From the NCBI GenBank assembly GCA_964461275.1, contig CAYWTU010000002.1, forward strand, positions 1 to 24,927: a stretch of 24,927 bases of DNA, in the 5' to 3' direction. This stretch comes from an uncultured Pirellulales bacterium. Its GTDB lineage: Bacteria > Planctomycetota > Planctomycetia > Pirellulales > CAYNRE01. Made by a program: the position numbers and the translations under genes. Below, piece after piece: positions 4,646-22,908 of this stretch (positions are counted from its first letter, which is position 1; each line of letters opens with the position of its first letter). The notes under the pieces are model-generated. The model was not told the DNA's origin. It searched no databases and saw nothing but the letters and a program-made list of their open reading frames with translations.

Positions 4646-6211
4646 TCACGCCAAGAACCGCCTCAAGACGTTGCCGGTGATCCGGGACGTAATGGAGTCG
4701 ATCAAGAGACCTGTTGGGTAGGTGATCGACCCGGCCGAGAACACCGCGCCTCCGCCCGACGTCTCGAACGCGACCATTTCGGCGCCGCCGCCGGCGGGAT
4801 TGAGTCCGCGCGCCAGCAGCTCCGTTTGCGGCGGCGAACTGCCGCTGCGCTTGTCGGTCTCGTGACCGGAGGCGCCGTCGCCGTAGCGCTGGTGCAGTAT
4901 CCGCTCGCCGAACACCTCCCCTTGCGCCAGGCCCGTGCCTGCGAACGCCCAGTGCCCGGGGTTCAAACACTCATAGGGAGCGCAGGTCATAGCGCCCGGG
5001 TCGGAGTAGACGACCCCCAGCAGATTGGCCTCCGATTCGACGTGCGTATGGAAGCGGCTGTCGAGCGCATGGTCCCAACGAGTGACGCAGCGCATCGCCC
5101 CGTCGGGCAGGAGTTCGACCACGCAATTGACCCCATTGCCCCCCAGGTACACCAGGCGACCTCCGCGCTCGAATACCCAGCGTTTGACCTTCCAGTACAT
5201 CTGGGCCGACCAGTATTCGGGGTGCACGCTGAGAACCAGCGCCTGATACCTGTCCAAGTCAAGTGTACCGACGTGCAACTGGGCGTCGGCGTACAAGTCG
5301 TAAGCGAATCCTTCTCGCTCCAGCCAGGCGAACAGCCGCCACTCGGCCGGGGCCAGCGCACATTCCATCCGTCCCTCGATCGGGTCGGTGCACTCTTCGT
5401 CCGGCCGGATCTGATTCCGCGGTTCGGGCCGATCGAACGACAGCGGGTCGTAATTTTCGGCGTTCCACTCTCCGTATTCCGCCAGCTTGTATCGCGGCAG
5501 GTCGGTTTTCGAGTTCACCACAGGCCGGTCGAGCATGCGCGAGGCCAGGATGTAGTTCGACCGACCGCCGAACGGATTGTAAGCGTTCCAGGTATTCGTC
5601 GAGGCCAACACCGCCAGCCGGCTTTGGGGCTCTTGCGGCGCGACCACCAGTGGGAACGAACACCACGCTCCCGAGTCGCCGCGAGCCTGAAAATAATATA
5701 AGCCGCTTTGTGTCGGCGCCTGGATGCACTGTTGGTGCACGCCGGCGGCGCCGTTGTCCCACCGCACGCCCGTCTCAACGAAATGCTGATCCGGCAGCGT
5801 TTGCATCACCGCCCGAGGGCCGTGGTTGTCGTACCAGCCGACGTTGCGAATGAACTGTCGCGCGTAGCCGTATCGCCAGAGCCCCAGCTTGTAGGGCTCA
5901 ACCGAGTGCATGCGCCACTCGACCCGTTGGTCGCCGCTGGTCCATTTCGGCCAGGCGTAGCCCAACATCCGATCGGACAGCAGGCGGAACTGGTAGGGCG
6001 GTCGCGCTGCGTCCACGGCCACCTGGATGCGTTTCGATCCGTACCCCGGCTTGGCCAAGACAATTTCGCAGGGGCCTGCCAACTGTTCGACATAGACGCC
6101 GCCGCTAGGGGCCGAACGCACGACTTGCGGCGAACCTTGGGCGGGGATCAACTCGACAGCCACGTCACCCAGCGCAGCATAGTATTCATCGCTAACGTAA
6201 CCGAGGAGCAT
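4646..6211 (-). CDS. N,N-dimethylformamidase beta (large) subunit family protein with N-terminal carboxypeptidase-regulatory-like beta-sandwich
   Basis: Motifs: SGLYYFQA, LAVLASTNTWNAYNPFGGRSNY, WLEREGFAYDLYAD, LSVHPEYWSAQMY, GGRLVYLGGN, GHETD and GGAVFSAGSI, matching the DMFase large-subunit C-terminal domain. Confidence 0.8.
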   Translation of the reverse strand: MLLGYVSDEYYAALGDVAVELIPAQGSPQVVRSAPSGGVYVEQLAGPCEIVLAKPGYGSKRIQVAVDAARPPYQFRLLSDRMLGYAWPKWTSGDQRVEWRMHSVEPYKLGLWRYGYARQFIRNVGWYDNHGPRAVMQTLPDQHFVETGVRWDNGAAGVHQQCIQAPTQSGLYYFQARGDSGAWCSFPLVVAPQEPQSRLAVLASTNTWNAYNPFGGRSNYILASRMLDRPVVNSKTDLPRYKLAEYGEWNAENYDPLSFDRPEPRNQIRPDEECTDPIEGRMECALAPAEWRLFAWLEREGFAYDLYADAQLHVGTLDLDRYQALVLSVHPEYWSAQMYWKVKRWVFERGGRLVYLGGNGVNCVVELLPDGAMRCVTRWDHALDSRFHTHVESEANLLGVVYSDPGAMTCAPYECLNPGHWAFAGTGLAQGEVFGERILHQRYGDGASGHETDKRSGSSPPQTELLARGLNPAGGGAEMVAFETSGGGAVFSAGSITYPTGLLIDSITSRITGNVLRRFLA

Positions 6212-6306: not shown

Positions 6307-7392
6307 TTAGCTCAAGAACTCCACCTGGTCATCGGCAAACCCGGCCGTACACACCGCAACGCCATCGCGGTTCTTGGCCGGAACAACCAGCAGCGACGCG
6401 ACGCCCGGGTGTTGCCGACAAAAGTCGGCCGCGAATTCAGTGCCTTGGCAGTAGAACGCCGTGGCCAAGGCGTCGGCGTCGGCGGCCGACGGCGCCATGA
6501 CCGTCGCCGACAGCGCACCGTCGGCGGGCCAACCGGTGCGCGGATCGAGGATATGCCCCAGGCGGCGTCCGTTATACCGCAGAAACTGCACGCCGCTGCC
6601 GGAAGTGCCCAGCGCCGCGTTGCGGAGTCGAATCATGGCCAACCGTCGCTGCGGACGCATCGGATCGCGCACTGCAATGGGCCAGCCGTCTGCCTCGTCC
6701 AGCGAACGATTGCCGCGGGCCAGCACGCTGCTTTGTCCACCGTGCAACAAGCAATGATCCACTCCACGTTCCTCCAGCAAGCGTGCGGCCCGGTCCAAGG
6801 CGTACCCTTTGCCGATGGCCCCCAGGTTGAGTTCCATTCCAGGCCGCGCAAAACGGACCTGTTGCGCAGCGGCGTCGAGCACGAGGTGCTGGGAACCGAC
6901 ACAGGTCAGCGCGGCTTGCAACTGAGCGGGGCTCGGTACGGACGCCTGCCGGTGGAAAAACCCCCAGGCCTTGACCAAAGGCCCAGCCGTCACGTCAAAG
7001 GCGCCGTGGGTGTCGCGCCACAGTTGGCTCGCTCGCGTCAGCAACTCGAATAGATTTGCCGCGACCGACACTTCGCCTTCACAGGCAGCGGCATTCAATC
7101 GCGAGACCTCGCTGTTGTCGCGGTAGACGGTCAATTGCGCCTCGAGGGCCTCGACCAGGTCAAGCGCCTCAAGCGCCGCCGCCGTGCCTTCGGCGAAACG
7201 ACCGGCCGACAGTAAGACCTCAAACTCGCAGGCCATGGCCCGGCGAGCGATGCGCAGCAGATAACCGTCGCGGCCGGCAGACCCGCCGGCGACGGGAGAG
7301 CCTTCGATAGCTTCGGTCAAATCCAGCAAGGCCCGCGCGGCAGCCTGGCCCTGCATGAATTCGCGACGATTACTCTTGCTCGGAGCGGCCAT
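6307..7392 (-). CDS. apbE: FAD:protein FMN transferase (ApbE family)
   Basis: Motifs: RRAMACEFEV, SEVSRLN, TxGAFDVTAGPLVKAWGF, ELNLGAIGKGYALD, LGTSGSG, GHILDPRTGWP and ADADALATAF. Confidence 0.93.
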   Translation of the reverse strand: MAAPSKSNRREFMQGQAAARALLDLTEAIEGSPVAGGSAGRDGYLLRIARRAMACEFEVLLSAGRFAEGTAAALEALDLVEALEAQLTVYRDNSEVSRLNAAACEGEVSVAANLFELLTRASQLWRDTHGAFDVTAGPLVKAWGFFHRQASVPSPAQLQAALTCVGSQHLVLDAAAQQVRFARPGMELNLGAIGKGYALDRAARLLEERGVDHCLLHGGQSSVLARGNRSLDEADGWPIAVRDPMRPQRRLAMIRLRNAALGTSGSGVQFLRYNGRRLGHILDPRTGWPADGALSATVMAPSAADADALATAFYCQGTEFAADFCRQHPGVASLLVVPAKNRDGVAVCTAGFADDQVEFLS

Positions 7393-7400
7393 TGTGGTCC

Positions 7401-7406
7401 ATTATA
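7401..7406 (-). promoter_or_regulatory. Perfect -10 hexamer immediately upstream of apbE (possible leaderless mRNA)
   Basis: TATAAT on the minus strand, 8 nt upstream of the apbE ATG. There is no SD sequence and no consensus -35. Confidence 0.4.
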
Positions 7407-7439
7407 CCGGGCCTGGGGCGAAGTTTCGGGACGGCGACA

Positions 7440-8450
7440 ATGCAGGCGTCGAACATCCAACAACGACGAACACGATTCGTTTGGCCGACGCTGGTTGGGC
7501 TATTATGCGGTAGTCCTGCGATTCTGGTTGCCGAGAACCCCCCCGCCAAGCGTCGTCCGGCGCCGCAGGCGCCTCCGCCGACGAATTGGGACCGAGCGAC
7601 GCTCGATCTTTTCTTGCCGGACGTGTCCGGCATCCTCGGCCCGCGGCCGGTTGCGACACGATCGGCGACCGACGCCGCCGGCGACGGCGAGCAACGCACC
7701 GCCCCTGCGGCGCCAGACGAGGACGCAAAATCCGCCGCGATTGTCGGTGACGCTCCGTCTTGGTCGGCAGCCATCTCGGCCGAGGCGCTGGAGGACGAGA
7801 TCAAGGCGGCCCATGCGGTGCTCAGCGACAACCTCAAAACAGCGTCCAAGTTCAAGTCAGGCGGGTTCCGCGCGGCACGACAGAGCCTGAGTTGGCTGGC
7901 GGTGCTTTTGGAAGTGGTGGGCCGGTTCGACGGCGAAGTACGTTGGCGCGAATCGGCATTGGCGCTGCGCGACGGCGCCGCCAGGGCCGGCCGCAACTGC
8001 AAAGCCGCCTCCGACGGCACGTTCAAGGAGGCCAAAGCGCGGGCGGCTGAATTGGCCGACATGCTCCGCGGACAACGTCCCGAGGCGGCGGCCTTGGCGC
8101 CGCCCGTCGCCTGGCCGGAATTGGTCGATCGGGCGCCTTTGATGCAGCGATTAGAATTGGCGCAGCGCGAGCGTTTGGCGCCCTGGACTAGCGGCGAAGC
8201 GGAGTTTCGCGGCCGTCGCGACGAAGCGAGGCATGAGGCGCAGGTCGTGGCGCTGTTGGCCCGGGTCATCGCCCACGCGGATTTCGAATTCGCCAACGAA
8301 GAGTCGTATCAAACGCAGGCCAGCGCGCTTGCGAGCGCGGCCGCAGCTCTCATCGAGGCGAGCAAGGCGAACGATTTTGAGCGCGCCCAGGCGGCCGCGC
8401 GCCAAGCGACCAAGAGCTGCGACGATTGTCACACGAACTTTCGCAGTTGA
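7440..8450 (+). CDS. Exported cytochrome c (cytochrome c'-like helical bundle, single C-terminal CxxCH), 336 aa
   Basis: Signal-like N-terminus (RRTRFVWPTLVGLLCGSPAILVA), Ala-rich helical body and C-terminal SCDDCHTNFRS. ATG 7440 was chosen because 7392 abuts the apbE start. Confidence 0.75.
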   Translation: MQASNIQQRRTRFVWPTLVGLLCGSPAILVAENPPAKRRPAPQAPPPTNWDRATLDLFLPDVSGILGPRPVATRSATDAAGDGEQRTAPAAPDEDAKSAAIVGDAPSWSAAISAEALEDEIKAAHAVLSDNLKTASKFKSGGFRAARQSLSWLAVLLEVVGRFDGEVRWRESALALRDGAARAGRNCKAASDGTFKEAKARAAELADMLRGQRPEAAALAPPVAWPELVDRAPLMQRLELAQRERLAPWTSGEAEFRGRRDEARHEAQVVALLARVIAHADFEFANEESYQTQASALASAAAALIEASKANDFERAQAAARQATKSCDDCHTNFRS

Positions 8451-11854: not shown

Positions 11855-13792
11855 GTGATTGCCGCCAAGTTTCAATTTTGTCGATACCGCCGCCGGTCGC
11901 TTGGGTTGGTTTTGGCCATGGCCCTGGGGGGCCCTGGAATGGTTCTAAGCGTGGCCTCGGCCCAGCCGGCGGCCAAAACCAGCCGCGAACTGGGGGGCAA
12001 CCAGCTCGAAGTTTGGGGCATGTCGTACTCGACCGGCGCCGACGGCAAGGCGCTGGGCAAGTGTTTTCCGATCAAGGTTACCATCGCGCACCAAGGGGGG
12101 CAGGCGTTTCGAGTCGGCGTGTTCGAGAGCGAGGTCGGCGGCGGCGGCCCCAACTGGCGAGCCAGCGGCTGGATGGCGGCGATGATCGCCGCCCAGTTCG
12201 TCGGATTCGATCCGGCCAGTACGCAAATCTCATACGACGTATCCGGCTTCGTCGACGGGCCGAGCGCCGGGGCGCTGATCACGGTGGGGACCATGGCGGC
12301 TTTGCGCGGCGACACCGTCCGCAGCGACGCCGCCATGACCGGCGCCATCAACCCCGACGGCACGATTGGTCCGGTGGGGGGCATTCCGCAGAAGATTGAA
12401 GGCGCTGCCTCGGCCGGGAAGAAATTGGTACTGATTCCCGCCGACGTGCGGCTGATGGACGACGTGAATCAACAGCGACAAGTCGATTTGATCGAGCACG
12501 GCAAGGCGTTGGGGGTGACGGTTCAACCGGTGGGCAACATCTACGAGGCGTACAAACTACTGACCGACCGCGAGTTGCCCCGGCCGCCGCAGGCTCGCCA
12601 TCCCGAGCTCAGCGAAGAAGCGTATGGCCACAACGAGCGGAAGAGTCGCGAGTGGGTGGTGCGGGCCAACGTGGCCTTGGAGCAGTACAAGAACCTGCCC
12701 GACACACATAAGTACGAGTTCACCATTGCCAATGCCGAGGCCGCCGAAATTGGTCTGAAACGAGTGGAAAACTTGCTCAACGAAGGGGAGCCGGCGCGGG
12801 CGTATCAATCGGCCATTGAATCGACCACGGCTGCCGTATTGTCGCTCGAGGCGTGCCGGCTAAATGAGACGTATCAGACGCGGACGTTGGATCAGGCTGC
12901 GGCCCAAGTCCGGGCGGTGGGCAGCGCCACGAGCAAGCTCGACCTAACCATCGGGCAGCTCAAACGAACCAAGCCCAAAACGGTCGGTCAGGTGGCGGCG
13001 CTCATCAACGCCCATATCACCTTGGATACGGCGGTGGCACAGTCGGTGTTGGCCAGGCAATTGCTGGAAGAGCAGGCGGCTGACGACGATCAGCGCCTGG
13101 GCAACGTGTTCAGCGCTCACGATTACTTTCAATACGCGCTGTTGAACGGCGAGGTGGCCAAAGACTATCTGGAAGCGTTGCCCAATATGGGAGGGCGGCC
13201 GTTGGCCAGCGATGCGCACTTGCCGGACGTGGCCGATTTGTTCCTCCACGCCGCCCAGGCCAACGAAAACGTGCTCGACCAGTTGGTGATCGAGGAGATC
13301 GCCAAGTCGGTCGGAAAGCGGGCCGAAGTGATCCGGGCGGGCCTGATGCGTAAAGACATCCTGTACGCCCAGAATCGACTAATCCTCAACGCGGTGCTGC
13401 CGTCGGTGGTCAAGGAACTTGGGACAGGTCCCTCGGCCGATTACGCTCGGTTGGCCGCCGCGGTCGAAGGGTACGGCGGGTCGTCGCTGCTGTTGGCCAA
13501 GTACAACACGCTCCGAACCGAGCTCGACGACGAGTTGAACTTGACCGGAATCGAGTACGAGAAGTCGTTGAACAACATGGTGGACACCGCCGAGGATCAG
13601 TTGCGGCGAAGCGTCGCCGCGCTTGTGGAACACGACATCGATCCGACGGCCTGCGTCGAGTATTACCAGATTGGGCGGATGTATCGCGACCGAAGCCAAG
13701 TGGCCAAGCTGGATGCGCTGAGCATGTATTGGCGTGGGCAATCGATCGCCTGGGCTTTGGCCCAATTGGCTGGGGTTTCGCTGGCGCAGTAA
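11855..13792 (+). CDS. Secreted S16-family (Lon proteolytic domain) serine protease lacking an AAA+ ATPase, with a long helical C-terminal region
   Basis: SD GAGGAG before GTG 11855 and a signal peptide ending ASA|Q. Ser-Lys dyad motifs: VDGPSAG and TGAINPDGTIGPVGGIPQKIEGAASAGKKLVLIP. No Walker motifs. Confidence 0.85.
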   Translation: MIAAKFQFCRYRRRSLGLVLAMALGGPGMVLSVASAQPAAKTSRELGGNQLEVWGMSYSTGADGKALGKCFPIKVTIAHQGGQAFRVGVFESEVGGGGPNWRASGWMAAMIAAQFVGFDPASTQISYDVSGFVDGPSAGALITVGTMAALRGDTVRSDAAMTGAINPDGTIGPVGGIPQKIEGAASAGKKLVLIPADVRLMDDVNQQRQVDLIEHGKALGVTVQPVGNIYEAYKLLTDRELPRPPQARHPELSEEAYGHNERKSREWVVRANVALEQYKNLPDTHKYEFTIANAEAAEIGLKRVENLLNEGEPARAYQSAIESTTAAVLSLEACRLNETYQTRTLDQAAAQVRAVGSATSKLDLTIGQLKRTKPKTVGQVAALINAHITLDTAVAQSVLARQLLEEQAADDDQRLGNVFSAHDYFQYALLNGEVAKDYLEALPNMGGRPLASDAHLPDVADLFLHAAQANENVLDQLVIEEIAKSVGKRAEVIRAGLMRKDILYAQNRLILNAVLPSVVKELGTGPSADYARLAAAVEGYGGSSLLLAKYNTLRTELDDELNLTGIEYEKSLNNMVDTAEDQLRRSVAALVEHDIDPTACVEYYQIGRMYRDRSQVAKLDALSMYWRGQSIAWALAQLAGVSLAQ

Positions 13793-13943: not shown

Positions 13944-14146
13944 GGAAGGCAGAGCGTCGGTACACTTTTCGGGCTGGTGTCGGCCAGTCGCCAACCGATC
14001 GTAACCTAAATCGCTCCAACAGCTTATCGTGTTTCGGTTGGTGGTCGTGTGCCAGGATGATCCTGGCTGATTCGGTTGTCGGCGCTTTGGTCCGCGGCGG
14101 GATTCGCGGGGTCTGGGCGTGTTTGTCTTTGTCAAAGGCTCACTCC

Positions 14147-17100
14147 GTGAAGCGTCGCAACTCCCGTCGTCCCGCTAATTCTGCGCACCTACCCCGCCTT
14201 CGGCGGCGACCGCTGATCTTTGAGCCGTTGGAATTGCGGCATCTGTTGCACGGCGTTCATGGCCCCGCGGTCGATCCCACGTTTTTGGAAACCGTGGACA
14301 ATTCGCGGAGCGTGTTCGACGGCGCCGGCGCGTTTTCTTCTCCTGCTAGCGGCGTTTTGGCCGGCACGCTGTTCAACGACATCAATCAGGACGGCCAAAA
14401 GCAAACGACGGAGCCGGGGCTGAGCAACCGCACGGTCTACCTGGACCTGAACACCAACGGGTTGCTGGACAACGGCGAGCCGAGCGTGCTGACCGATTCG
14501 GCCGGTGGATATACGTTCAACAACATGCCGGCCGGCAGCTACGTTGTCGCTACTACGGCGTTCGCCGGTTGGAAGCTGACCACGCCCAATGACTTCGAGT
14601 TTGCGCCAGCGGTAAACCTTGGTGCTGGCAGCGGAACGCGGCTGCCGATTACGCCGGACTTGAACGACGACGGCGCTCCCGACTTGGTGGTGAGCAACGC
14701 CTTTGCCGACAATATCTCGGTGTTTCTCAACGACGGGTCCGGCGTTTTTTCTGCGGCCGTGAACTACGCCGTTGGCGACCTGCCGCGCGCTGTCGAGGCG
14801 GCGGACTTCGACAAAGACGGCGACCTAGACCTTGTGGTCGCCAACCTCAGCACGGCAAACGTTTCCGTGCTGCTCAACGACGGCGCCGGCGGTTTTTCCG
14901 CGGCGGTGAACTATGCCGCGGGGGGCGGCGCTTGGTTGACGCGCTCGATCGACTTGAACTCCGACGGCAAGCTCGACATTGCCGTAATGAACCAGAATTC
15001 GAGCACGGTGACCATCCTCCGCGGCGACGGCGCCGGAACGTTCGTCGCCGGCGGGAATTACGCCACTGGCACGTGGCCTCACGACCTGATTGCCTTCGAC
15101 GCTGATGGCGACAGCGACATCGATTTGCTTACGGCCAACTTGGTCGGCAACACGCTCACGCTGCTTAGCAACAACGGCGCTGGAACGTTCACCACCAGCA
15201 GCATCGCGGCCGCCGCCGGCCCGTTGGAGATCACGCGGACCGACGTTGACGGAGACGGCGAGTTGGACCTGGCGGTGGAAAACTTGAACTCGAACAATAT
15301 CTCCCTCTTCATCGCCAATGGCGACGGCACGTTTCAGCCGCGGGTGGACTATGCCGCTGGGCTCAACGCCCACCGCTTGCAGGCCGCTGATTTGGACGGC
15401 GACGACGATGTGGACTTTGCCGTGGCCAACTACGGTGACGACAACGTCTCGATCCTGCTCAACGACGGTCTGGGCAATCTTTCGGCCCCGACGAACTACG
15501 CGGTCGGCGACGGCCCGTTGTTTGTCGAGGCGCACGATTTTGACAACGACGGCGACATCGATCTGGTCGCCTCCAACAGCGAGAACGATTCTCTGTCGAT
15601 GCTCCTCAACAACGGCGACGGCACGTTTGCCGCGGCGATTGACGTGGCCACGGGGCTCGAGCCGCGGTTCATGACGGTCGTCGATTTCAATCGCGATGGA
15701 GCGCTGGACGTGATCACCAGCAATTTTTCCGGGGCCGGCGTGTCGCTGATACGCAACCGGGCGGGCGAGCACCGCGTGGCCGTGGCGGCAGGTGAAGTAC
15801 TGACCAATTTGGACTTCGGCAGCAGTAGGCAGGTGGTGCTCGGAGACCAGCCGTCGGCCAACCACACCTTCAAGATCCGCATCGACGACGACGCTTTCAA
15901 GACGCTCGACTTTGTCGTCGGCTCGCAAACACAGTCGCGCACGATCAAGGTTCGCCGCTTTGCCGGCGATGACGCCAGCAACATTCGCGTGGTCTATGAG
16001 GTGGTGGAGGGCAACGCCGCCGACTGGAACGTCTCGCTGGGGCAAACGAACTTTCTCCTGGGCAAGGCCCCCGTCTTCTCGACGGCCGATTCCGACCCCC
16101 GCGGCACGGTGCTGCCGACCCATTTTGGCGACGGTGATATCGACAACGACGACCTGGCGCGTCTGGAAGCCAACATGACGGGCCCCGGCGTCAAGCTGAC
16201 CGGGCCGCAGATTCCGGACCGGTTGATCTTTGACCTGGATGGCGATCTGGACATCGACACCGACGACCGGGACATATTGCTCGGACAGTTTACGGGCCCC
16301 TATAGCGATCCCTGGAACGTGGAGTTCGACCTCAATGTGAGCGCGGTCTCCACCGCCCCGGTCGGGTCCGCGGCGCGAATCAAGATCACGGCCATCGACC
16401 TCAACACAGGCGAATCCCGAAGCGCTTTCGCCCACGTCAAGAACCAGCCCTATGGCCCGCTTGCGTCGCAGTTTTTCAGCAGCCAGATCTTGCCCGATTC
16501 GCTCGACAAACTTTTGTATGGCTCGGTTGAAACGTTCAAACTCAACATGAAAAACCTGGGGGCCGACCCGGACGTATTCACCGTCTCGGTCGATCCCGTG
16601 CCGGGCTACAGCTTCCAGATCATCGACGCCCTCAGCGGGACGCCGATGACGTCGTACAGCATGGGGCCCGGCGGCCCGGACGTGGCGGCGTTTCCCAACG
16701 CTGCTCGTCCGGTCATCGTGGTCGTGACCGCCACCGGTTCCGTCCCCCGCGGCACGGTCCAGGAGTTCACGTTTCGGGTTCATAGCACGGCCGGCAACAC
16801 CGACAGCACGGTGAATTTCAAGCTCACCAAGGCCGGGCCCATGTGGGGGCCCGACGACATCTCGCTGAGCACCGGTCGCCGGCATCAGCTCATGGCCGAC
16901 GAAGTCACCACGTTTGGAATGACCGTTCGGAACACGTTTGGAGTCAGCAAGACATTCACTTTGACCGCCACGCCGGTGGGCGCCGCCGCGGGTTGGGCTG
17001 GCGCCCTTTCACAGACCAGCGTGACGCTTGCCCCCAACGCGCAGACCGACGTTATCTTTACCTTGACCCCGCCGGCCAATGCTTCGCTGGGGACCCTTTC

Positions 17101-20100
17101 CGATTGGACCATCGCGCTGCGCGACGGCGCTACGCTGCTGAGCATCAACCGCTACGGCGCCCAAATCGACGATGTCCGCAACGTTTTGTATGTGGCCATG
17201 GACGCCCTGGCGCCGCAGTACATGAGCCTCAACGCCGCCGGCACGGGCGCAGGCTCCTCGAATGATTGGCTCATGCCCAATCTTCGCCGTCTGATGGAGA
17301 TCAGCACGACGTACACCAACGCCAAGGGCAACCTGCCATCGTACACCGATCCCAACCATACCGCGGCGCTGAGCGGCAGCGCCATGGGGATGAACGGCGT
17401 CGCCAGCGTAATTTTTAACTACTTTGGCCGCGACGAAGACGGCTCGGGCGTGGCCAAGAGCGTCGGTTATGAGTCGCTGCGTTATGGACCCAACGGCGAT
17501 GAGCTGCCGACGATCTTCGACATCTCGCTGGCGGAAAACCCCAACTCCATGACCTACTTTGCCACCGGCAAGGGCTGGATGAGCAACTATTTCCGCAAGC
17601 CGACCGGCGGCGCACGGCTGTTCTTGGACGCCTGGAACCGGCCCCAGTACGTCGCCGCCCCCGAGCAGCACACCATTGGCGACCCGTCCAGCGATCCCGA
17701 CGCCGCGACCGATCCGGCCCTCGACCCCACCATCGCCAATTGGGGCACGACGCCAGGACTGTACCCGGAGGACCGCTTTGTGGCCGAGGGCAGCATCCGC
17801 GTCATGGACTACCAAGACCCGGACGTGATGTATGTGCTCATGGCCGGGCCGGACGATGTGGGGCACATGATCGGCGACGCCTGGGATCCGGCCGATTGGG
17901 ACACGCGGGGCACCCCCGAGCTTTGGGACGATATTCACATTGACAACCCTCGGGCCCAGCGCGAAGACATCTTGGACGAAATCCGCGAGACCGACGCGGT
18001 CTTCGGCGAGCTGCTCGACAACCTCATTGCCCGCGGCAAGCTCGACAACACCTACATCGCGCTGCTGGCCGATCACTCGATGATCACGCTCAATCCGCAC
18101 CAGGCCGATCTGGGCGGCTACCTGGAATCGGAGGGCTACGGCTACAAGGACGACTACGACGCGGCAGCGGGCGGGGGCGTGGCGTTGTTTTTCGATGTGG
18201 CCGAGAGTGAGAAAGCGAATTTCGAAAGCCTCTTGGAGAACGCCCCGCCGTTGATTGCCGGCTACGCGACTAATCCTTGGATCGTCGTCAGCCGCGACGA
18301 CATGCTGACCGGCATCGACGCCCACACCGGCACGGTCTTTAGCCAACCGGGCGAACTGTACAGCCAATTCTTCATCGAACAAGAAACCGACGATGTTTCC
18401 AAGCCGCGCTGGGTTGATTTCCTGATGTTGTTCGACGACGGCGGGCAGGCGGCGCCGTTGCACTTCGATCCTCACCTAGGCGAAGACCAGAGTTTGGGTG
18501 GTGAGAACTTCGTGGGCGGACACGCCGGCGCCGACACACAGTCGATTCCGCTCATCATCCACGGCCCGGGCTTGCCGCAAAACGTCGCGCACGCGGATCC
18601 GGTGCGGATCGACGACATCGCGCCGACGTTCTATCGGGCCTTGGGTTGGGACTCGCCGGACAATGTGCAAGGCGTAGTGCTGCCGCACTTGTTCAACAAT
18701 CTGCCGCCAACGGCCGACGCGGGCGGACCATACTCCATCGCCGAAGGCGACGACCTATTGCTCTCCGCGGCGGCGACCACCGATCCCGAGAACGACGCGC
18801 TGACGTACTCTTGGGACATCAACCGCGACGGCGTATTCGGCGATGCAACCGGCGTGACTCCGTCACTCACTTGGGAGCAGCTCGTGGCGCTGGGCATGGG
18901 CAACGGCCCGGGCACTTACTGGCCCACGGTTCGCGTTGCCGACGGCAACGGCGGCAGCGTCACCTCGCCGATGACTCGGCTGGACATCTTGGCCAGTGGT
19001 CCAACGGTGAGCGGCAGCGGCGCCGGCGGCGTACGCGGCGAATTGCGTAGCTTTACCTTCTCGGCCACGAACCCGGTGGCCGGTGAACAGAATGACCCCG
19101 TCACGTATTGCATCGATTGGGACGGGAACGGCACGGTCGACGAAACCGTCGTCGGAACGTCGGCGGGCGTGACGGTCGAGCGGAGCTTTGCCGCAGCCGG
19201 CACGACCGACGTCAAGGTGTTCGCCTACGACAACGACCGAGTGGCGGGACCGACGTTGACCTATCCCGTGACGACTTCGGTGTTCGAATTGCGGCCCAAC
19301 GTCAACAACGCCAGCCTGACCGATCTGGTTTACGGCGGCACCGACGGACTGGACGCGGTCTTCTTCTTCGTTGCCACCGGTCCTGCGGGATCGGTTACGG
19401 TCTTCAGGCAGTTCGACAACACCGTGCTGACCAACGTGCAAACCACTGTCGGCGGCGTGACCGGCGACGTCATCGCCTACGGCTACGGCGGCGGTGATGC
19501 GCTGGTTGGCGAATTCCTGATTGCGCAGACCGCTGAGTTCTACGGCGGCGACGGCGATGACGTCCTGGTCGGCGGCTTCGGCGCCGACCTACTCGACGGC
19601 GGCCTGGGCAACGACATCCTGATTGGAGGCACGCAGCCAACCGACGGGGCGGACACGCTGCTCGGCGGCGATGGTCGCGACCTGTTGTGGAGCCACCTGG
19701 GCGCCGATTCGCTTGACGGCGGCGCAGGCGACGACCTGCTGGTAGGCAATCAGGTCACGTTCGGCGCTCAAGTGCCTCAGGCGGTCTTCGCCATTCAGGC
19801 CGAGTGGCTCTCCAGCCGCACGTTTGCCGAGCGCGTGGACAACATCTCGGGCACGGGCATAGGCCCGCGGCTAAACGGCAATTTCTTCCTGCAAGACGGC
19901 GTTACGGTTTTGGACGACGCGGCAATCGACGAGCTGACCGGCGGCGCCGATCAAGATTGGTTCGTTCCTCCCACGGCCGCCGACGTGATTCACGATCCGG
20001 ACATGGGGGGCATGGCGCTGCGCGTGGCCGGCGGGATTTCCGCCGCCGAGAGCACAACGGGGAGAACGTCGCTGGCAAGCGACTTGCTGCCTTTCCTGCC

Positions 20101-21187
20101 AGTCGATGTAACCCAATGGGTGATGCAGCAGGCCTCCGCGTTGGCCGCGGTGACGGCCGGGGCTTCAAATGCCGAATCGTTCGGCGATCAACCGGCCAAC
20201 GACCTGGTTTACGGCCAAGACAATCCACCCCCGGCCGATGACCTTGTGCCCAACGTCGGAATTGATCCGGAAACCGGTCTGCCCGCGACGACCCCTTGTC
20301 CCAAATGTGGACAAAGTCCGTGCGGGTGCGGCGCCGGTTCCAGCGGTTGCCCCAAATGCGGACAGAGTCCGTGCGGCTGCGCAAGCGCTTGTCCTACCTG
20401 CGGCACGACCGCGTGCAGTTGCTCGCCGGGCGATGCCAACGGCGATGGCCGCATCTCGCGGCGCGACGTGGCGGCGCTAATGTACGCCGTATACGATCCG
20501 GAAACGTTCGCCACGCTTTATCCGAAGGTTGATCCAGCGATTGCCGCCGACGTCAACGGCGACGGCGTGGTGAACGCTGCGGACATCGACGCTTTGGCCG
20601 CCAAATTTCCGCGGCCGGGCGGCGACAACCCTTGCCCAAAATGCGGCGGCAGCCCGTGCGGATGTAACCCGAGCAACGCGGCCGGTGGCGGCTGCCCAGC
20701 CTGTGGGACCAGCCCGTGCAGTTGCACTGGCAGCGGCCCGGCCTGCCCGGCGTGCGGCGGCAGCCCGTGCGGATGTGCTGCCCAAGTGGCGGCGGCGCCG
20801 CCTGTCGAGAGCTTCGTCGGGCTGACCGTGGTCGCTGCGAATGGTGACGCTCCAGCCGCGGAGGAGGCCGGATCGAACTCGGACGCGCCGCCCGATCCGC
20901 ACAGCGGCCCGGGCGACACACTGCTGGGCGCGCTGTCCGACAGTACGGTCGCGGCCACCGACGCCCTGTTTGCTGGCGACGACCAAGCTTGGGTCACGCC
21001 TGCCGGGCGCGTACCGAGTGACGGCGGCTCGGCGGATGTGTCATCGCGGTACGAACGACTGCAATCGCACCGTCCGGCGATCTTGGAGGCGCTGCAGGCG
21101 ATTCGCCGTCGGGCCACGGAAGACGCCGAGGATAGCAATCATTCCAGCGGCTGGCGCGACTTTCTGCGAATGATCGCGCGGCGGTAG
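14147..21187 (+). CDS. Giant planctomycete extracellular protein (2346 aa): SdrD-B / FG-GAP / dockerin-like / Ig-like / NPP-type phosphodiesterase / PKD / RTX / Cys-rich repeats / dockerin
   Basis: GTG 14147 with SD AAAGG and motif RRRPLIFEPLELRHLL (14201-14248). Domain order: SdrD-B ~14351-14590; 8 FG-GAP repeats; EF-hand pair 16121-16300; Ig-like domains ~16430-17165; phosphodiesterase 17177-18700; PKD-like ~18701-19290; RTX nonamers 19481-19748; Cys-rich 20297-20422; dockerin 20429-20611; Cys-rich 20633-20776. Confidence 0.9.
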   Translation: MKRRNSRRPANSAHLPRLRRRPLIFEPLELRHLLHGVHGPAVDPTFLETVDNSRSVFDGAGAFSSPASGVLAGTLFNDINQDGQKQTTEPGLSNRTVYLDLNTNGLLDNGEPSVLTDSAGGYTFNNMPAGSYVVATTAFAGWKLTTPNDFEFAPAVNLGAGSGTRLPITPDLNDDGAPDLVVSNAFADNISVFLNDGSGVFSAAVNYAVGDLPRAVEAADFDKDGDLDLVVANLSTANVSVLLNDGAGGFSAAVNYAAGGGAWLTRSIDLNSDGKLDIAVMNQNSSTVTILRGDGAGTFVAGGNYATGTWPHDLIAFDADGDSDIDLLTANLVGNTLTLLSNNGAGTFTTSSIAAAAGPLEITRTDVDGDGELDLAVENLNSNNISLFIANGDGTFQPRVDYAAGLNAHRLQAADLDGDDDVDFAVANYGDDNVSILLNDGLGNLSAPTNYAVGDGPLFVEAHDFDNDGDIDLVASNSENDSLSMLLNNGDGTFAAAIDVATGLEPRFMTVVDFNRDGALDVITSNFSGAGVSLIRNRAGEHRVAVAAGEVLTNLDFGSSRQVVLGDQPSANHTFKIRIDDDAFKTLDFVVGSQTQSRTIKVRRFAGDDASNIRVVYEVVEGNAADWNVSLGQTNFLLGKAPVFSTADSDPRGTVLPTHFGDGDIDNDDLARLEANMTGPGVKLTGPQIPDRLIFDLDGDLDIDTDDRDILLGQFTGPYSDPWNVEFDLNVSAVSTAPVGSAARIKITAIDLNTGESRSAFAHVKNQPYGPLASQFFSSQILPDSLDKLLYGSVETFKLNMKNLGADPDVFTVSVDPVPGYSFQIIDALSGTPMTSYSMGPGGPDVAAFPNAARPVIVVVTATGSVPRGTVQEFTFRVHSTAGNTDSTVNFKLTKAGPMWGPDDISLSTGRRHQLMADEVTTFGMTVRNTFGVSKTFTLTATPVGAAAGWAGALSQTSVTLAPNAQTDVIFTLTPPANASLGTLSDWTIALRDGATLLSINRYGAQIDDVRNVLYVAMDALAPQYMSLNAAGTGAGSSNDWLMPNLRRLMEISTTYTNAKGNLPSYTDPNHTAALSGSAMGMNGVASVIFNYFGRDEDGSGVAKSVGYESLRYGPNGDELPTIFDISLAENPNSMTYFATGKGWMSNYFRKPTGGARLFLDAWNRPQYVAAPEQHTIGDPSSDPDAATDPALDPTIANWGTTPGLYPEDRFVAEGSIRVMDYQDPDVMYVLMAGPDDVGHMIGDAWDPADWDTRGTPELWDDIHIDNPRAQREDILDEIRETDAVFGELLDNLIARGKLDNTYIALLADHSMITLNPHQADLGGYLESEGYGYKDDYDAAAGGGVALFFDVAESEKANFESLLENAPPLIAGYATNPWIVVSRDDMLTGIDAHTGTVFSQPGELYSQFFIEQETDDVSKPRWVDFLMLFDDGGQAAPLHFDPHLGEDQSLGGENFVGGHAGADTQSIPLIIHGPGLPQNVAHADPVRIDDIAPTFYRALGWDSPDNVQGVVLPHLFNNLPPTADAGGPYSIAEGDDLLLSAAATTDPENDALTYSWDINRDGVFGDATGVTPSLTWEQLVALGMGNGPGTYWPTVRVADGNGGSVTSPMTRLDILASGPTVSGSGAGGVRGELRSFTFSATNPVAGEQNDPVTYCIDWDGNGTVDETVVGTSAGVTVERSFAAAGTTDVKVFAYDNDRVAGPTLTYPVTTSVFELRPNVNNASLTDLVYGGTDGLDAVFFFVATGPAGSVTVFRQFDNTVLTNVQTTVGGVTGDVIAYGYGGGDALVGEFLIAQTAEFYGGDGDDVLVGGFGADLLDGGLGNDILIGGTQPTDGADTLLGGDGRDLLWSHLGADSLDGGAGDDLLVGNQVTFGAQVPQAVFAIQAEWLSSRTFAERVDNISGTGIGPRLNGNFFLQDGVTVLDDAAIDELTGGADQDWFVPPTAADVIHDPDMGGMALRVAGGISAAESTTGRTSLASDLLPFLPVDVTQWVMQQASALAAVTAGASNAESFGDQPANDLVYGQDNPPPADDLVPNVGIDPETGLPATTPCPKCGQSPCGCGAGSSGCPKCGQSPCGCASACPTCGTTACSCSPGDANGDGRISRRDVAALMYAVYDPETFATLYPKVDPAIAADVNGDGVVNAADIDALAAKFPRPGGDNPCPKCGGSPCGCNPSNAAGGGCPACGTSPCSCTGSGPACPACGGSPCGCAAQVAAAPPVESFVGLTVVAANGDAPAAEEAGSNSDAPPDPHSGPGDTLLGALSDSTVAATDALFAGDDQAWVTPAGRVPSDGGSADVSSRYERLQSHRPAILEALQAIRRRATEDAEDSNHSSGWRDFLRMIARR
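14600..15760 (+). repeat. Eight FG-GAP/VCBS coding repeats (beta-propeller)
   Basis: DLNDDGAPDL, DFDKDGDLDL, DLNSDGKLDI, DADGDSDIDL, DVDGDGELDL, DLDGDDDVDF, DFDNDGDIDL and DFNRDGALDV, at roughly 55-aa spacing. Confidence 0.9.
19481..19748 (+). repeat. RTX/hemolysin-type Ca-binding GGxGxDxLx repeats
   Basis: GGDGDDVLV, GGFGADLLD, GGLGNDILI, GGDGRDLLW and GGAGDDLLV. Confidence 0.85.
20297..20776 (+). repeat. Six CPxCGxxxCxC coding repeats in two blocks of three around a dockerin
   Basis: CPKCGQSPCGC twice and CPTCGTTACSC before the dockerin. CPKCGGSPCGC, CPACGTSPCSC and CPACGGSPCGC after it. Confidence 0.9.
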
Positions 21188-21519: not shown

Positions 21520-22908
21520 CTACGGGGACTGTTCGGCCTGCTCTTCAAAGTCAGGCGTCGCGTCGTCCCCTTCCGCTTCCACTGCCAGGCCCAGGTGCAC
21601 CATCCGGCGATAGAGCCGCGGCCGCGATAGTCCCAACGCTCGGGCCGCCTTGGCGCGATTGCCGCGAGCCTTGGTCAACGCCTCTTCGATCAGCGCCCGT
21701 TCGGTTTGCGCTAATGTTTCGACCAGCGAAATGCGCATCGGTTGTGGAGGTCGATGCGTTGCCGCTTGCCGGGCCAACTCGAGTTCCGCTGGCAGATCGC
21801 GCCCTGTGACGTAATGTCCCTCGGCCCGTTGGCAGGCGCCGTGCAACACGCCTTGGAGTTCGGCTACGTCGCCCTGCCATGGGTGCAATGCCAGCCGTTC
21901 CAGCGCTTCGGGCGTGATGCCCGCCAATTGCTTGTCGCCAGCCGCGTTGATGTCTTCGATCAGCGCTTGCACGACCTGCGGCAGGTCGATCAGCCGCTGG
22001 GACAGCGGCGTCAGTTCGATGGGAATCACGCTCAACCGCTGCGCCAGCTCCGCGTCGAACTCGCCACGCGCCGCCATCGCGGTTAGCGGTTGACCGGACG
22101 TTGCGAGTAGGCGCACGCCCGCAGGCGACTGCCACGTGCGTAGATCTCGCTGGGTCACCGGGGAAAGTCGGTCGACGTCGCACACCAACAAGCCGCCGCC
22201 GGTGCGCGCCGCGCGTGCTGCGGCCGCGCGCACATCTTCCGCCGTGGCCGCGACGCTATCGACAGTTATCAGGGTGGACGAGTCGGGTGATGTATCGCCC
22301 GCGGCGATACACCGGGCTACCGACTCGCGCCCGCTGCCCGGCGGCCCCCAAACTAAGACGTTGGCCGATGTCGCCTGTCGCGCAGCCTGCACTTGCTGGC
22401 ATACCCTTTGCGCGGAGGCGCTGGAACCGGCCAGCCGGGCCAAGTCAAATCGACTCCGTAGCCGAGCCCGCCATGACCAGATCGCGGCGTGCAATTGATC
22501 GGAATCGACGACGGGCGAGTCGTCGAGTGCTGCGGCGGGCTTCTCGTCGCCCACCGCCACCAGCAAGCCTCGCCCGATCGCGCCCAGCGAAAGCGTTACG
22601 AATTGGGCAAGGCGCTGCCGCACAATCCCTTGCTCGTCGATCCAGGTCAAATTCCCGGCGGCGATTTGACCGTCGAACGCCTCGGGGGGTGGGCATAGGG
22701 CGGCCGACCAATCGGTGGCGCCCTCCGGTGTCGGTCGGCTGTGGTAGCTGCACCGCAGCGTCAGCAGCCGGTCGAGTTCCCACCCGGTCCACAAGCACAC
22801 GGCGGCGTTGGCCGCGATCAGCCATTGTTCCTCGTCCAGCAGATACAGCGGGCGGTCGGCCGACTCTAGGCGGCGGGCAAAGGCGGATGGCCGGGAACGC
22901 TTCGGCAT
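21520..22908 (-). CDS. PAS + degenerate sigma54-interaction (AAA+) + Fis-HTH transcriptional regulator
   Basis: N-terminal PAS-like region (PLYLLDEEQWLIAANAA), GSSASAQRVCQQV, VLVWGPPGSGRESVAR, VRLLATS, LAQRLSVIPIELTPLSQR, HPWQGDVAEL and C-terminal GNRAKAARALGLSRPRLYRRM. Confidence 0.85.
   Translation of the reverse strand: MPKRSRPSAFARRLESADRPLYLLDEEQWLIAANAAVCLWTGWELDRLLTLRCSYHSRPTPEGATDWSAALCPPPEAFDGQIAAGNLTWIDEQGIVRQRLAQFVTLSLGAIGRGLLVAVGDEKPAAALDDSPVVDSDQLHAAIWSWRARLRSRFDLARLAGSSASAQRVCQQVQAARQATSANVLVWGPPGSGRESVARCIAAGDTSPDSSTLITVDSVAATAEDVRAAAARAARTGGGLLVCDVDRLSPVTQRDLRTWQSPAGVRLLATSGQPLTAMAARGEFDAELAQRLSVIPIELTPLSQRLIDLPQVVQALIEDINAAGDKQLAGITPEALERLALHPWQGDVAELQGVLHGACQRAEGHYVTGRDLPAELELARQAATHRPPQPMRISLVETLAQTERALIEEALTKARGNRAKAARALGLSRPRLYRRMVHLGLAVEAEGDDATPDFEEQAEQSP

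Follow-up and report, generated by a model that had tools for sequence, protein, structure and literature searches.

The closest described counterparts of the sequence element treated here are small Cys-containing metal sites. Zinc ribbons and rubredoxins carry two CxxC(G) knuckles on a beta-hairpin. The retroviral-type CCHC zinc knuckle, C-x2-C-x4-H-x4-C, holds a single zinc ion in a very small module, and metallothioneins display multi-metal thiolate clusters within one small protein. Reported here is an 11 amino acid (aa) element with four Cys (the Cys4 unit), which is found six times in a giant open reading frame (ORF) of an uncultured Pirellulales bacterium. The ORF is situated at 14057..21187 on the plus strand of a 24,927 nucleotide (nt) stretch of DNA (GenBank assembly GCA_964461275.1, contig CAYWTU010000002.1, positions 1 to 24,927), and this whole stretch is termed the window. 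Three units are found on each side of a dockerin domain. The units exist, are under selection, belong to a widespread unit family and are located in linkers. The reading preferred here, to which about an even chance is given, is that each unit forms a Cys4 bead that binds one metal ion and stiffens the linker, the two cassettes of three units being stalks around the dockerin.

Six Cys4 units in a giant open reading frame

Translation of the giant ORF gives one open frame of 2376 aa counted from the first ATG. The public gene call (P0002) starts 79 codons downstream and yields 2297 aa, with 2296 of 2297 aligned residues identical. An initial annotation of this DNA gave 2346 aa, a length that varies with the start codon chosen. 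The same annotation described six in-frame CPxCGxxxCxC units, three before and three after a dockerin, joined by Gly/Ser/Ala linkers. Translation and a pattern scan find all six exactly where it had placed them, and the spacers are Gly/Ser/Ala-rich.

All six units are pattern matches on the plus strand. Cassette 1 consists of unit 1 (CPKCGQSPCGC, 20297..20329, from aa 2081), unit 2 (CPKCGQSPCGC, 20348..20380, from aa 2098) and unit 3 (CPTCGTTACSC, 20390..20422, from aa 2112), in which Ala replaces Pro at position 8. Cassette 2 consists of unit 4 (CPKCGGSPCGC, 20633..20665, from aa 2193), unit 5 (CPACGTSPCSC, 20693..20725, from aa 2213) and unit 6 (CPACGGSPCGC, 20744..20776, from aa 2230). Cys at positions 1, 4, 9 and 11 and Gly at position 5 (G5) are present in 6/6 units, and Pro at position 8 (P8) in 5/6. 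The remainder of the protein is almost free of Cys, as had been observed: 24 of the 26 Cys of the giant ORF fall within units, and aa 22 and aa 1685 account for the remaining two. That the unit corresponds to no named domain also holds, as no Pfam or NCBIfam family matches it at E ≤ 1.

The DNA pattern of the unit gives 6 matches in the window and 0 in 100 dinucleotide-preserving shuffles. A six-frame scan of the whole assembly yields a single further match, on contig C487. DNA identity between the six units is 61–77%. The proportion of synonymous differences (pS) is 0.27–1.2, with synonymous sites near saturation, and that of non-synonymous differences (pN) is 0–0.28. Units 1 and 2 differ by 4 synonymous and 0 non-synonymous changes, the peptides being identical. 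Tandem Repeats Finder shows no tandem array of unit length and reports solely a 20 nt, period-9 repeat between units 5 and 6. The six units are old copies under purifying selection and do not constitute a recent slippage array.

The segment at 20100–21000 is also assembled in Logan contigs from metagenome runs of several studies; no RNA run is among those listed, which bears in neither direction on expression. Four runs from 4 studies show 9 variant sites and no indels over 901 nt, and one metagenome contig covers all 901 nt of the module stretch with 8 differences and no indel. Two of the variants across the 4 runs change an amino acid, S2027A and K2157Q. The 66 codons of the units hold one of the 9 variant sites, which is synonymous and situated at Pro2200 in unit 4. 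The gene and its Cys units are real, stable and under purifying selection, as seen from the shuffles, the pN and pS values, the natural variants and the intact metagenome contigs taken together.

At 20534–20595, which corresponds to the second calcium loop of the dockerin, metagenome contig depth is up 2–7-fold and many short pieces continue into unlike sequence. This rise represents near-identical dockerin-loop DNA of other organisms and not extra copies of the gene.

The unit family in other proteins

A scan for two units in tandem, with one genome per species, gave at least 120 stretches. Eighty of these were fetched and consist of 70 real ORFs and 10 low-complexity frames; the counts that follow are among these listed matches. 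HsdR identity (ResIII and/or EcoEI_R_C) is found in 63/70 ORFs, in which the cassette separates the helicase from the EcoEI_R_C domain. Exactly three units are present in 53 or more of the 70 ORFs, which represent Bacteroidota, Verrucomicrobiota, Planctomycetota, Acidobacteriota, Proteobacteria, bacteria of the candidate phyla radiation and others. The consensus over the 205 units of the 70 ORFs is P-E-P-C-P-[VK]-C-G-[QK]-x-P-C-[VE]-C. G5 is present in 196/205 units (96%) and P8 in 180/205 (88%); Cys is invariant in this set because the search pattern selects for it, whereas P8 was not demanded by the pattern. In an alignment of 96 units the four Cys are the invariant columns. Two of the HsdR ORFs, L034:1-2223 (plus strand) and L089:336-2516 (minus strand), show a GIY-YIG domain (PF01541, E-values = 1.6e-16 and 5e-14, respectively) where the N-terminal part of ResIII is expected, which may be an inserted homing-endonuclease-like module.

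The 7 tandem ORFs that are not HsdR consist of two DUF499-like proteins, three proteins from Bacilli, Nocardioides and Acidimicrobiia, and two Paludibacteraceae lipoproteins with starch-binding modules. The last two (L061:415-1659, minus strand, and L107:1414-2664, plus strand; CBM26/CBM48-type) and a Clostridiales lipoprotein that is likewise one of the 7 (L052:1-717, minus strand) share an arrangement of signal peptide, lipobox Cys and then, directly, 2–4 units. In these three the unit acts as a tether outside the cytoplasm, a precedent which shows that extracytoplasmic use is tolerated. Paludibacteraceae and Clostridiales are anaerobes, and the exported thiols of these lipoproteins may on that account stay reduced.

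Within the phylum, a pattern scan of 401 genomes gave matches in 122, a tally that overstates the real units, as 20/20 single matches picked for a missing P8 and the lack of an obvious context are wrong-frame, Arg-rich ORFs. The first 20 loci inspected consist of 10 small MazG-like proteins with one terminal unit, 2 HsdR-like proteins, 3 cases of an unnamed two-unit protein and 5 spurious matches. MazG-like proteins ending in one unit pass the Pfam MazG cut-off in 7 of 7 cases tested. The single further match in the host genome, on contig C487 (L158:1108-1458, plus strand), is one of these MazG-like proteins (Pfam MazG, 26.7 bits), with a terminal CPGCGQLVCTC followed by 6 residues; class-level relatives show the same layout with CPGCGxMVCxC.

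A word-index search with the first cassette yields 5 proteins, all HsdR, with E-values of about 0.6. Of 20 stretches from viral contigs, 17 are real, and the units are found in acidic linkers of large proteins and in one HsdR. Four viral proteins of 49–51 aa (L182, L188, L196 and L198) contain little beyond two units (...CPACGCDPCDCGWG...CxRCGSxDCWCHWGDQ), which suggests that the unit can stand alone. The units of the giant protein belong to a widespread 11-residue family with the consensus CPxCGxxPCxC, whose main homes are HsdR linkers and MazG-like C-termini. Position in the chain is consistent across the family: between domains in HsdR, DUF499-like and viral proteins, behind the lipobox Cys in lipoproteins, and in the tails of MazG-like proteins.

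The chance matches bear on the possibility that the unit is a filler, i.e. a self-propagating Cys/Pro/Gly-rich motif spread by unit duplication in linkers and merely tolerated there. The pattern does arise by chance, out of frame, in GC-rich genomes (the 20/20 single matches without P8, and the 10/80 low-complexity tandem matches), the arrangement around the dockerin is a singleton and the units are poorly modelled (see below). However pN remains much lower than pS among the six units, and the peptide of units 1 and 2 is the same despite 4 synonymous changes. None of the 24 Cys has been lost, natural variants fall almost wholly outside the units, and the conservation of Cys, G5 and P8 extends across phyla. 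A tolerated filler is very unlikely on these grounds.

The distribution also bears on a view offered in the initial annotation, that the cassettes lock the protein covalently to the cell envelope, or polymerize it, through intermolecular disulfides. Planctomycete envelopes have been reported to be cystine- and proline-rich, and a probably exported protein with 24 exposed Cys in its flexible Gly/Ser/Ala linkers would suit such a role. However the four invariant Cys of the unit form a closed set with fixed spacing, the unit recurs in enzymes of the cytoplasm, in viral proteins and in the tethers of lipoproteins from different phyla, no other context of the unit calls for covalent cross-linking, and a Pfam scan at E ≤ 1 gave neither an envelope-protein family nor one of the YTV type. 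The cytoplasm is not a compartment where stable disulfides are expected. Since this is the main setting of the unit (HsdR linkers and MazG-like C-termini), a disulfide module for anchoring or polymerization is unlikely as its basic function, and for the giant protein itself cross-linking of this kind is given only a slight probability.

The host protein, its dockerin and the bracket arrangement

Pfam domains of the giant ORF are SdrD_B-like, seven FG-GAP_3 stretches, a phosphodiesterase, PKD, RTX nonapeptide repeats and Dockerin_1. The NCBIfam scan adds RTX-repeat matches that are far below threshold. A weak 'Planctomycete extracellular' motif, RRRPLIFEPLELRHLL, is found at 14201..14248 on the plus strand (aa 49–64) and matches Planc_extracel (PF07595) with 17.9 bits (E-value = 0.025 for the genome), which is below the cut-off of 25.5. 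The same family is found above cut-off in 5 other ORFs of the host genome and in 0/14 control genomes. From the FG-GAP, PKD, RTX and dockerin domains and the weak Planc_extracel motif, the giant protein is probably exported.

The phosphodiesterase (aa 1072–1373) is a type I phosphodiesterase/alkaline-phosphatase-superfamily domain. It had been proposed that the Cys repeats form an extracellular, metallothionein-like Zn store that supplies this domain. Six possible metal sites per molecule and the presence of an enzyme domain from a superfamily that usually requires metal speak for a buffer of this type. However some 700 residues separate the units from the enzyme domain, and it is the dockerin that they adjoin; they are also present in proteins that carry no zinc enzyme domain. 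Moreover each unit is a separate four-Cys knuckle spaced by linker, unlike a metallothionein cluster, and Pfam and NCBIfam scans of the giant protein give no metallothionein family at E ≤ 1. The proposed feeding of the phosphodiesterase is therefore unsupported and a metal store of any such kind is very improbable.

A type I dockerin-like domain with two EF-hand-type calcium loops is situated at 20426..20602 on the plus strand, between the cassettes. Pfam Dockerin_1 (PF00404) matches aa 2124–2181 with 31.5 and 33.5 bits, and with 36.8 bits in a separate scan; the gathering cut-off is 22.9. Both loops, DANGDGRISRRD and DVNGDGVVNAAD, are recognizable in the sequence as the DxNxDG type. AlphaFold2 (AF2), with a composite alignment of 60 rows, models the domain with a predicted local distance difference test (pLDDT) of 93–97. 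In a Foldseek search with this model the best matches are all type I dockerins (target-normalized TM-score ≤ 0.78, root mean square deviation 1.8, probability 0.99–1.0); their E-values are 0.17 or higher, which reflects the small size of the domain. Among the dockerin relatives retrieved, P0101 and P0112 are small proteins that end in a PEP-CTERM-like tail (VPEP, a hydrophobic stretch and an Arg cluster). The dockerin type of the giant protein thus appears often to be paired elsewhere with a cell-surface sorting signal, and the giant protein has an unrelated 136 aa tail instead.

This C-terminal tail (20777..21187, plus strand; 136 aa and stop codon) follows unit 6, and the dockerin, which had been called C-terminal, is therefore internal. 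The tail has no Pfam or NCBIfam family match, and a search of 40 relatives with the C-terminal 328 aa gave no relative of it. It is rich in Ala, Asp and Ser, and the last segment is basic and amphipathic-looking (…ILEALQAIRRRATEDAEDSNHSSGWRDFLRMIARR). With RTX repeats upstream, the C-terminus may carry a type I secretion signal.

The bracket of cassettes around a dockerin appears confined to this protein. A phmmer search with the 173 aa module against 1.84 billion representatives gave 632 matches at E ≤ 0.001, of which the best 150 are 149 dockerin-only proteins and the protein itself. Its 90% cluster has one member. The C-terminal 328 aa, when compared with the 40 relatives, match dockerins and one three-unit cassette in a planctomycete HsdR (E-value = 3.8e-8 for that genome, 55% identity over 51 aa), and the middle 561 aa give no match at E ≤ 1e-10 in the same relatives. 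The DNA pattern 'unit then DxNxDG within 1–11 codons', with TGC demanded for the first Cys, is matched twice in 185,579 species genomes, both times out of frame. The ESM Atlas shows dockerin clusters only, every score being < 0.9. Thus the bracket looks like a lineage-specific use of a common unit, and would be the first case around a dockerin in a probably exported protein.

Structural resemblance and models

A profile of the 96 units (17 columns) was compared with all solved chains. The matches cover positions 1–10, i.e. the CPxCG half only, with E ≥ 0.08, and are found in Nop10, RpoM, L32/L33, rubredoxin and rubrerythrin, where this half is a metal knuckle. Solved structures of host proteins stop short of the unit: the HsdR fragment 3h1t ends before the cassette, and the MazG-like 1vmg ends where the unit would begin.

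The AF2 model of the module displays no secondary structure in the units. A second model was made in the HsdR context with 50 natural sequences. Here the first two units reach a pLDDT of about 77, above most flanking stretches of the truncated domains, and again show no helix or strand. The HsdR-context model fits small ordered loops and is not strong evidence. A homodimer prediction with 2 copies of the module and 4 Zn gave a score of 0.01, which weighs neither for nor against the unit as a metal site.

Possible function of the Cys4 unit

Metal ligation is the most economical explanation of the unit because the Cys are invariant, the CPxCG half is that of a metal knuckle, and the main hosts, HsdR and MazG-like proteins, are cytoplasmic. 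The location of the unit, always in linkers or tails and often in place of Pro-rich spacers, suggests that it is a compact bead that makes the linker stiffer or shields it. In the mechanism envisaged, the unit would combine a CPxCG knuckle of the rubredoxin/zinc-ribbon type with a closely following PCxC clasp. The four thiolates would hold one metal ion, most likely Zn2+ or possibly Fe, and the metal would fold the 11 residues into a compact bead. A string of beads in place of a floppy linker would give a spacer that is stiffer, more compact and probably resistant to proteases. In the giant protein, the dockerin would then stand on two stalks of three beads each, between the RTX-containing body and the C-terminal tail. 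Two elements of the initial annotation survive here, the lack of a named domain and the plausibility of metal; that the unit is special to planctomycete envelopes or to this protein does not hold.

Several points weigh against the one-metal bead. The profile search of all solved chains gave no chain with the whole unit. In the literature, as far as it can be searched, no spelling of the motif that was tried is present, and titles and the opening parts of abstracts on related themes are bare of the unit. In the literature to that same extent, and in solved structures, no demonstration of metal binding by a member of the unit family was found. The AF2 module model gives a pLDDT of 46–50 for cassette 1, which had no aligned rows, and of 55–71 for cassette 2. 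The likeness to the HsdR and MazG units is at the motif level only, in 11 residues of biased composition, and with that and the word-index E-value of about 0.6, common descent cannot be shown. The bracket is present in one protein only and no homologue carries the module, which leaves no comparative test of its role. No cohesin partner of the dockerin was found, PF00963 giving 0 matches in the host assembly (5.08 Mb, 73% complete). Lastly, since the protein looks exported, its units may be disulfide-bonded, and Cys4 metal sites outside the cell are prone to oxidation.

The last point can be put as an explanation of its own: after export, each unit would close with two intramolecular disulfides into a metal-free mini-knot, which would still be rigid and protease-resistant. 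The giant protein has domains commonly seen in exported proteins, along with the weak Planc_extracel motif, the number of Cys per unit is even (4), the unit is found behind the lipid anchor in three lipoproteins, and no redox or metal gene is located near the giant ORF. However the main homes of the unit, HsdR and MazG-like proteins, are cytoplasmic, so that disulfides would not be its ancestral mode, and all solved matches to the CPxCG half are metal knuckles. The extracytoplasmic examples, moreover, come from anaerobes in which thiols could stay reduced. Oxidized beads in the giant protein are considered unlikely, though they retain some weight.

An extension of the one-metal bead to the exported state is given a low probability. 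The 11-residue unit would be a Zn(Cys)4 module that is undescribed and self-sufficient and ranks with the smallest complete metal sites known, the giant protein would show that bacteria export it as well, and the cassettes would form a metal- and redox-sensitive stalk that gates surface attachment. With zinc loaded and thiols reduced, the stalks would be stiff and the dockerin presented; with oxidation or loss of metal, the stalks would collapse or cross-link. Zinc-thiolate switches are known from cytoplasmic redox sensors, and one would here operate outside the cell.

No new chemistry of envelope anchoring is revealed by the giant protein. Instead it joins a very widespread family of Cys4 units that is described by no family library or solved structure, nor in those parts of the papers that could be searched. 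The family extends through restriction enzymes, MazG-like proteins, viral proteins and lipoprotein tethers of many phyla. With the giant protein, which is probably exported, and the three lipoproteins, the unit appears also to be used in proteins that leave the cytoplasm. If the one-metal, linker-stiffening bead is correct, it would provide a useful annotation for thousands of proteins and a very small building block for protein engineering.

Gene neighborhood

Upstream of the giant ORF in the window are a DMFA2_C-like protein (4646–6211, minus strand), ApbE (6307–7392, minus strand), an ORF with a cytochrome c' match at its C-terminal end (7392–8450, plus strand) and a Lon-like protease ORF with a Lon_C fragment (11855–13792, plus strand). 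A sigma-54 activator is situated downstream (21520–22908, minus strand), and DUF1326 is also present among the neighbors. The closest relative of the ApbE among named genomes is found in a Frigoriglobus metagenome-assembled genome (53% identity). With the Planc_extracel matches of the host genome, this gives good support to a planctomycete origin. None of the neighbors in the window points to a thiol, metal or cohesin partner or is obviously linked to the giant protein.

Comparison with known systems

The dockerin passes the Pfam cut-off of the type I family, carries two DxNxDG loops, and its model superposes on solved dockerins. The segment between the loops, DPETFATLYPKVDP, resembles the type present in the retrieved non-cellulosomal dockerin relatives. 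The domain differs from type I dockerins in that it is internal and flanked by Cys cassettes, in a genome where no cohesin was found.

With zinc ribbons and rubredoxins (Nop10, RpoM/TFIIS, L32, L33, rubredoxin, rubrerythrin) the unit shares its first half, (P)CPxCG. In those proteins the second Cys pair comes from another knuckle 10–30 residues away and the scaffold is a beta-hairpin. In the unit, there is one CPxCG, the second pair is the CxC four residues downstream so that the whole site falls within 11 residues, and the models display no strands. The CCHC zinc knuckle has the same first ligand spacings, x2 and x4, and the Gly after the second Cys. It differs in its His ligand, the unit having Cys ligands only, and in its last spacing of x4, which is x1 in the unit; nothing points to nucleic-acid binding by the unit. 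Metallothioneins share the high local density of Cys and the CxC and CxxC spacings, whereas the giant protein has six discrete four-Cys units separated by linkers. Thus the likeness is to known metal knuckles, and what appears to be new is a complete Cys4 site in 11 residues that is used as a linker bead.

The HsdR and MazG units are the nearest counterparts. They share the C-x2-C-G-x2-P-C-x-C spacing with G5 and P8, the linker position and the typical cassette of three units. Their hosts are cytoplasmic enzymes and their spacers are rich in Pro, Glu and Lys, whereas in the present case the host is a giant protein that is probably exported, the spacers are Gly/Ser/Ala-rich, and two cassettes bracket a dockerin.

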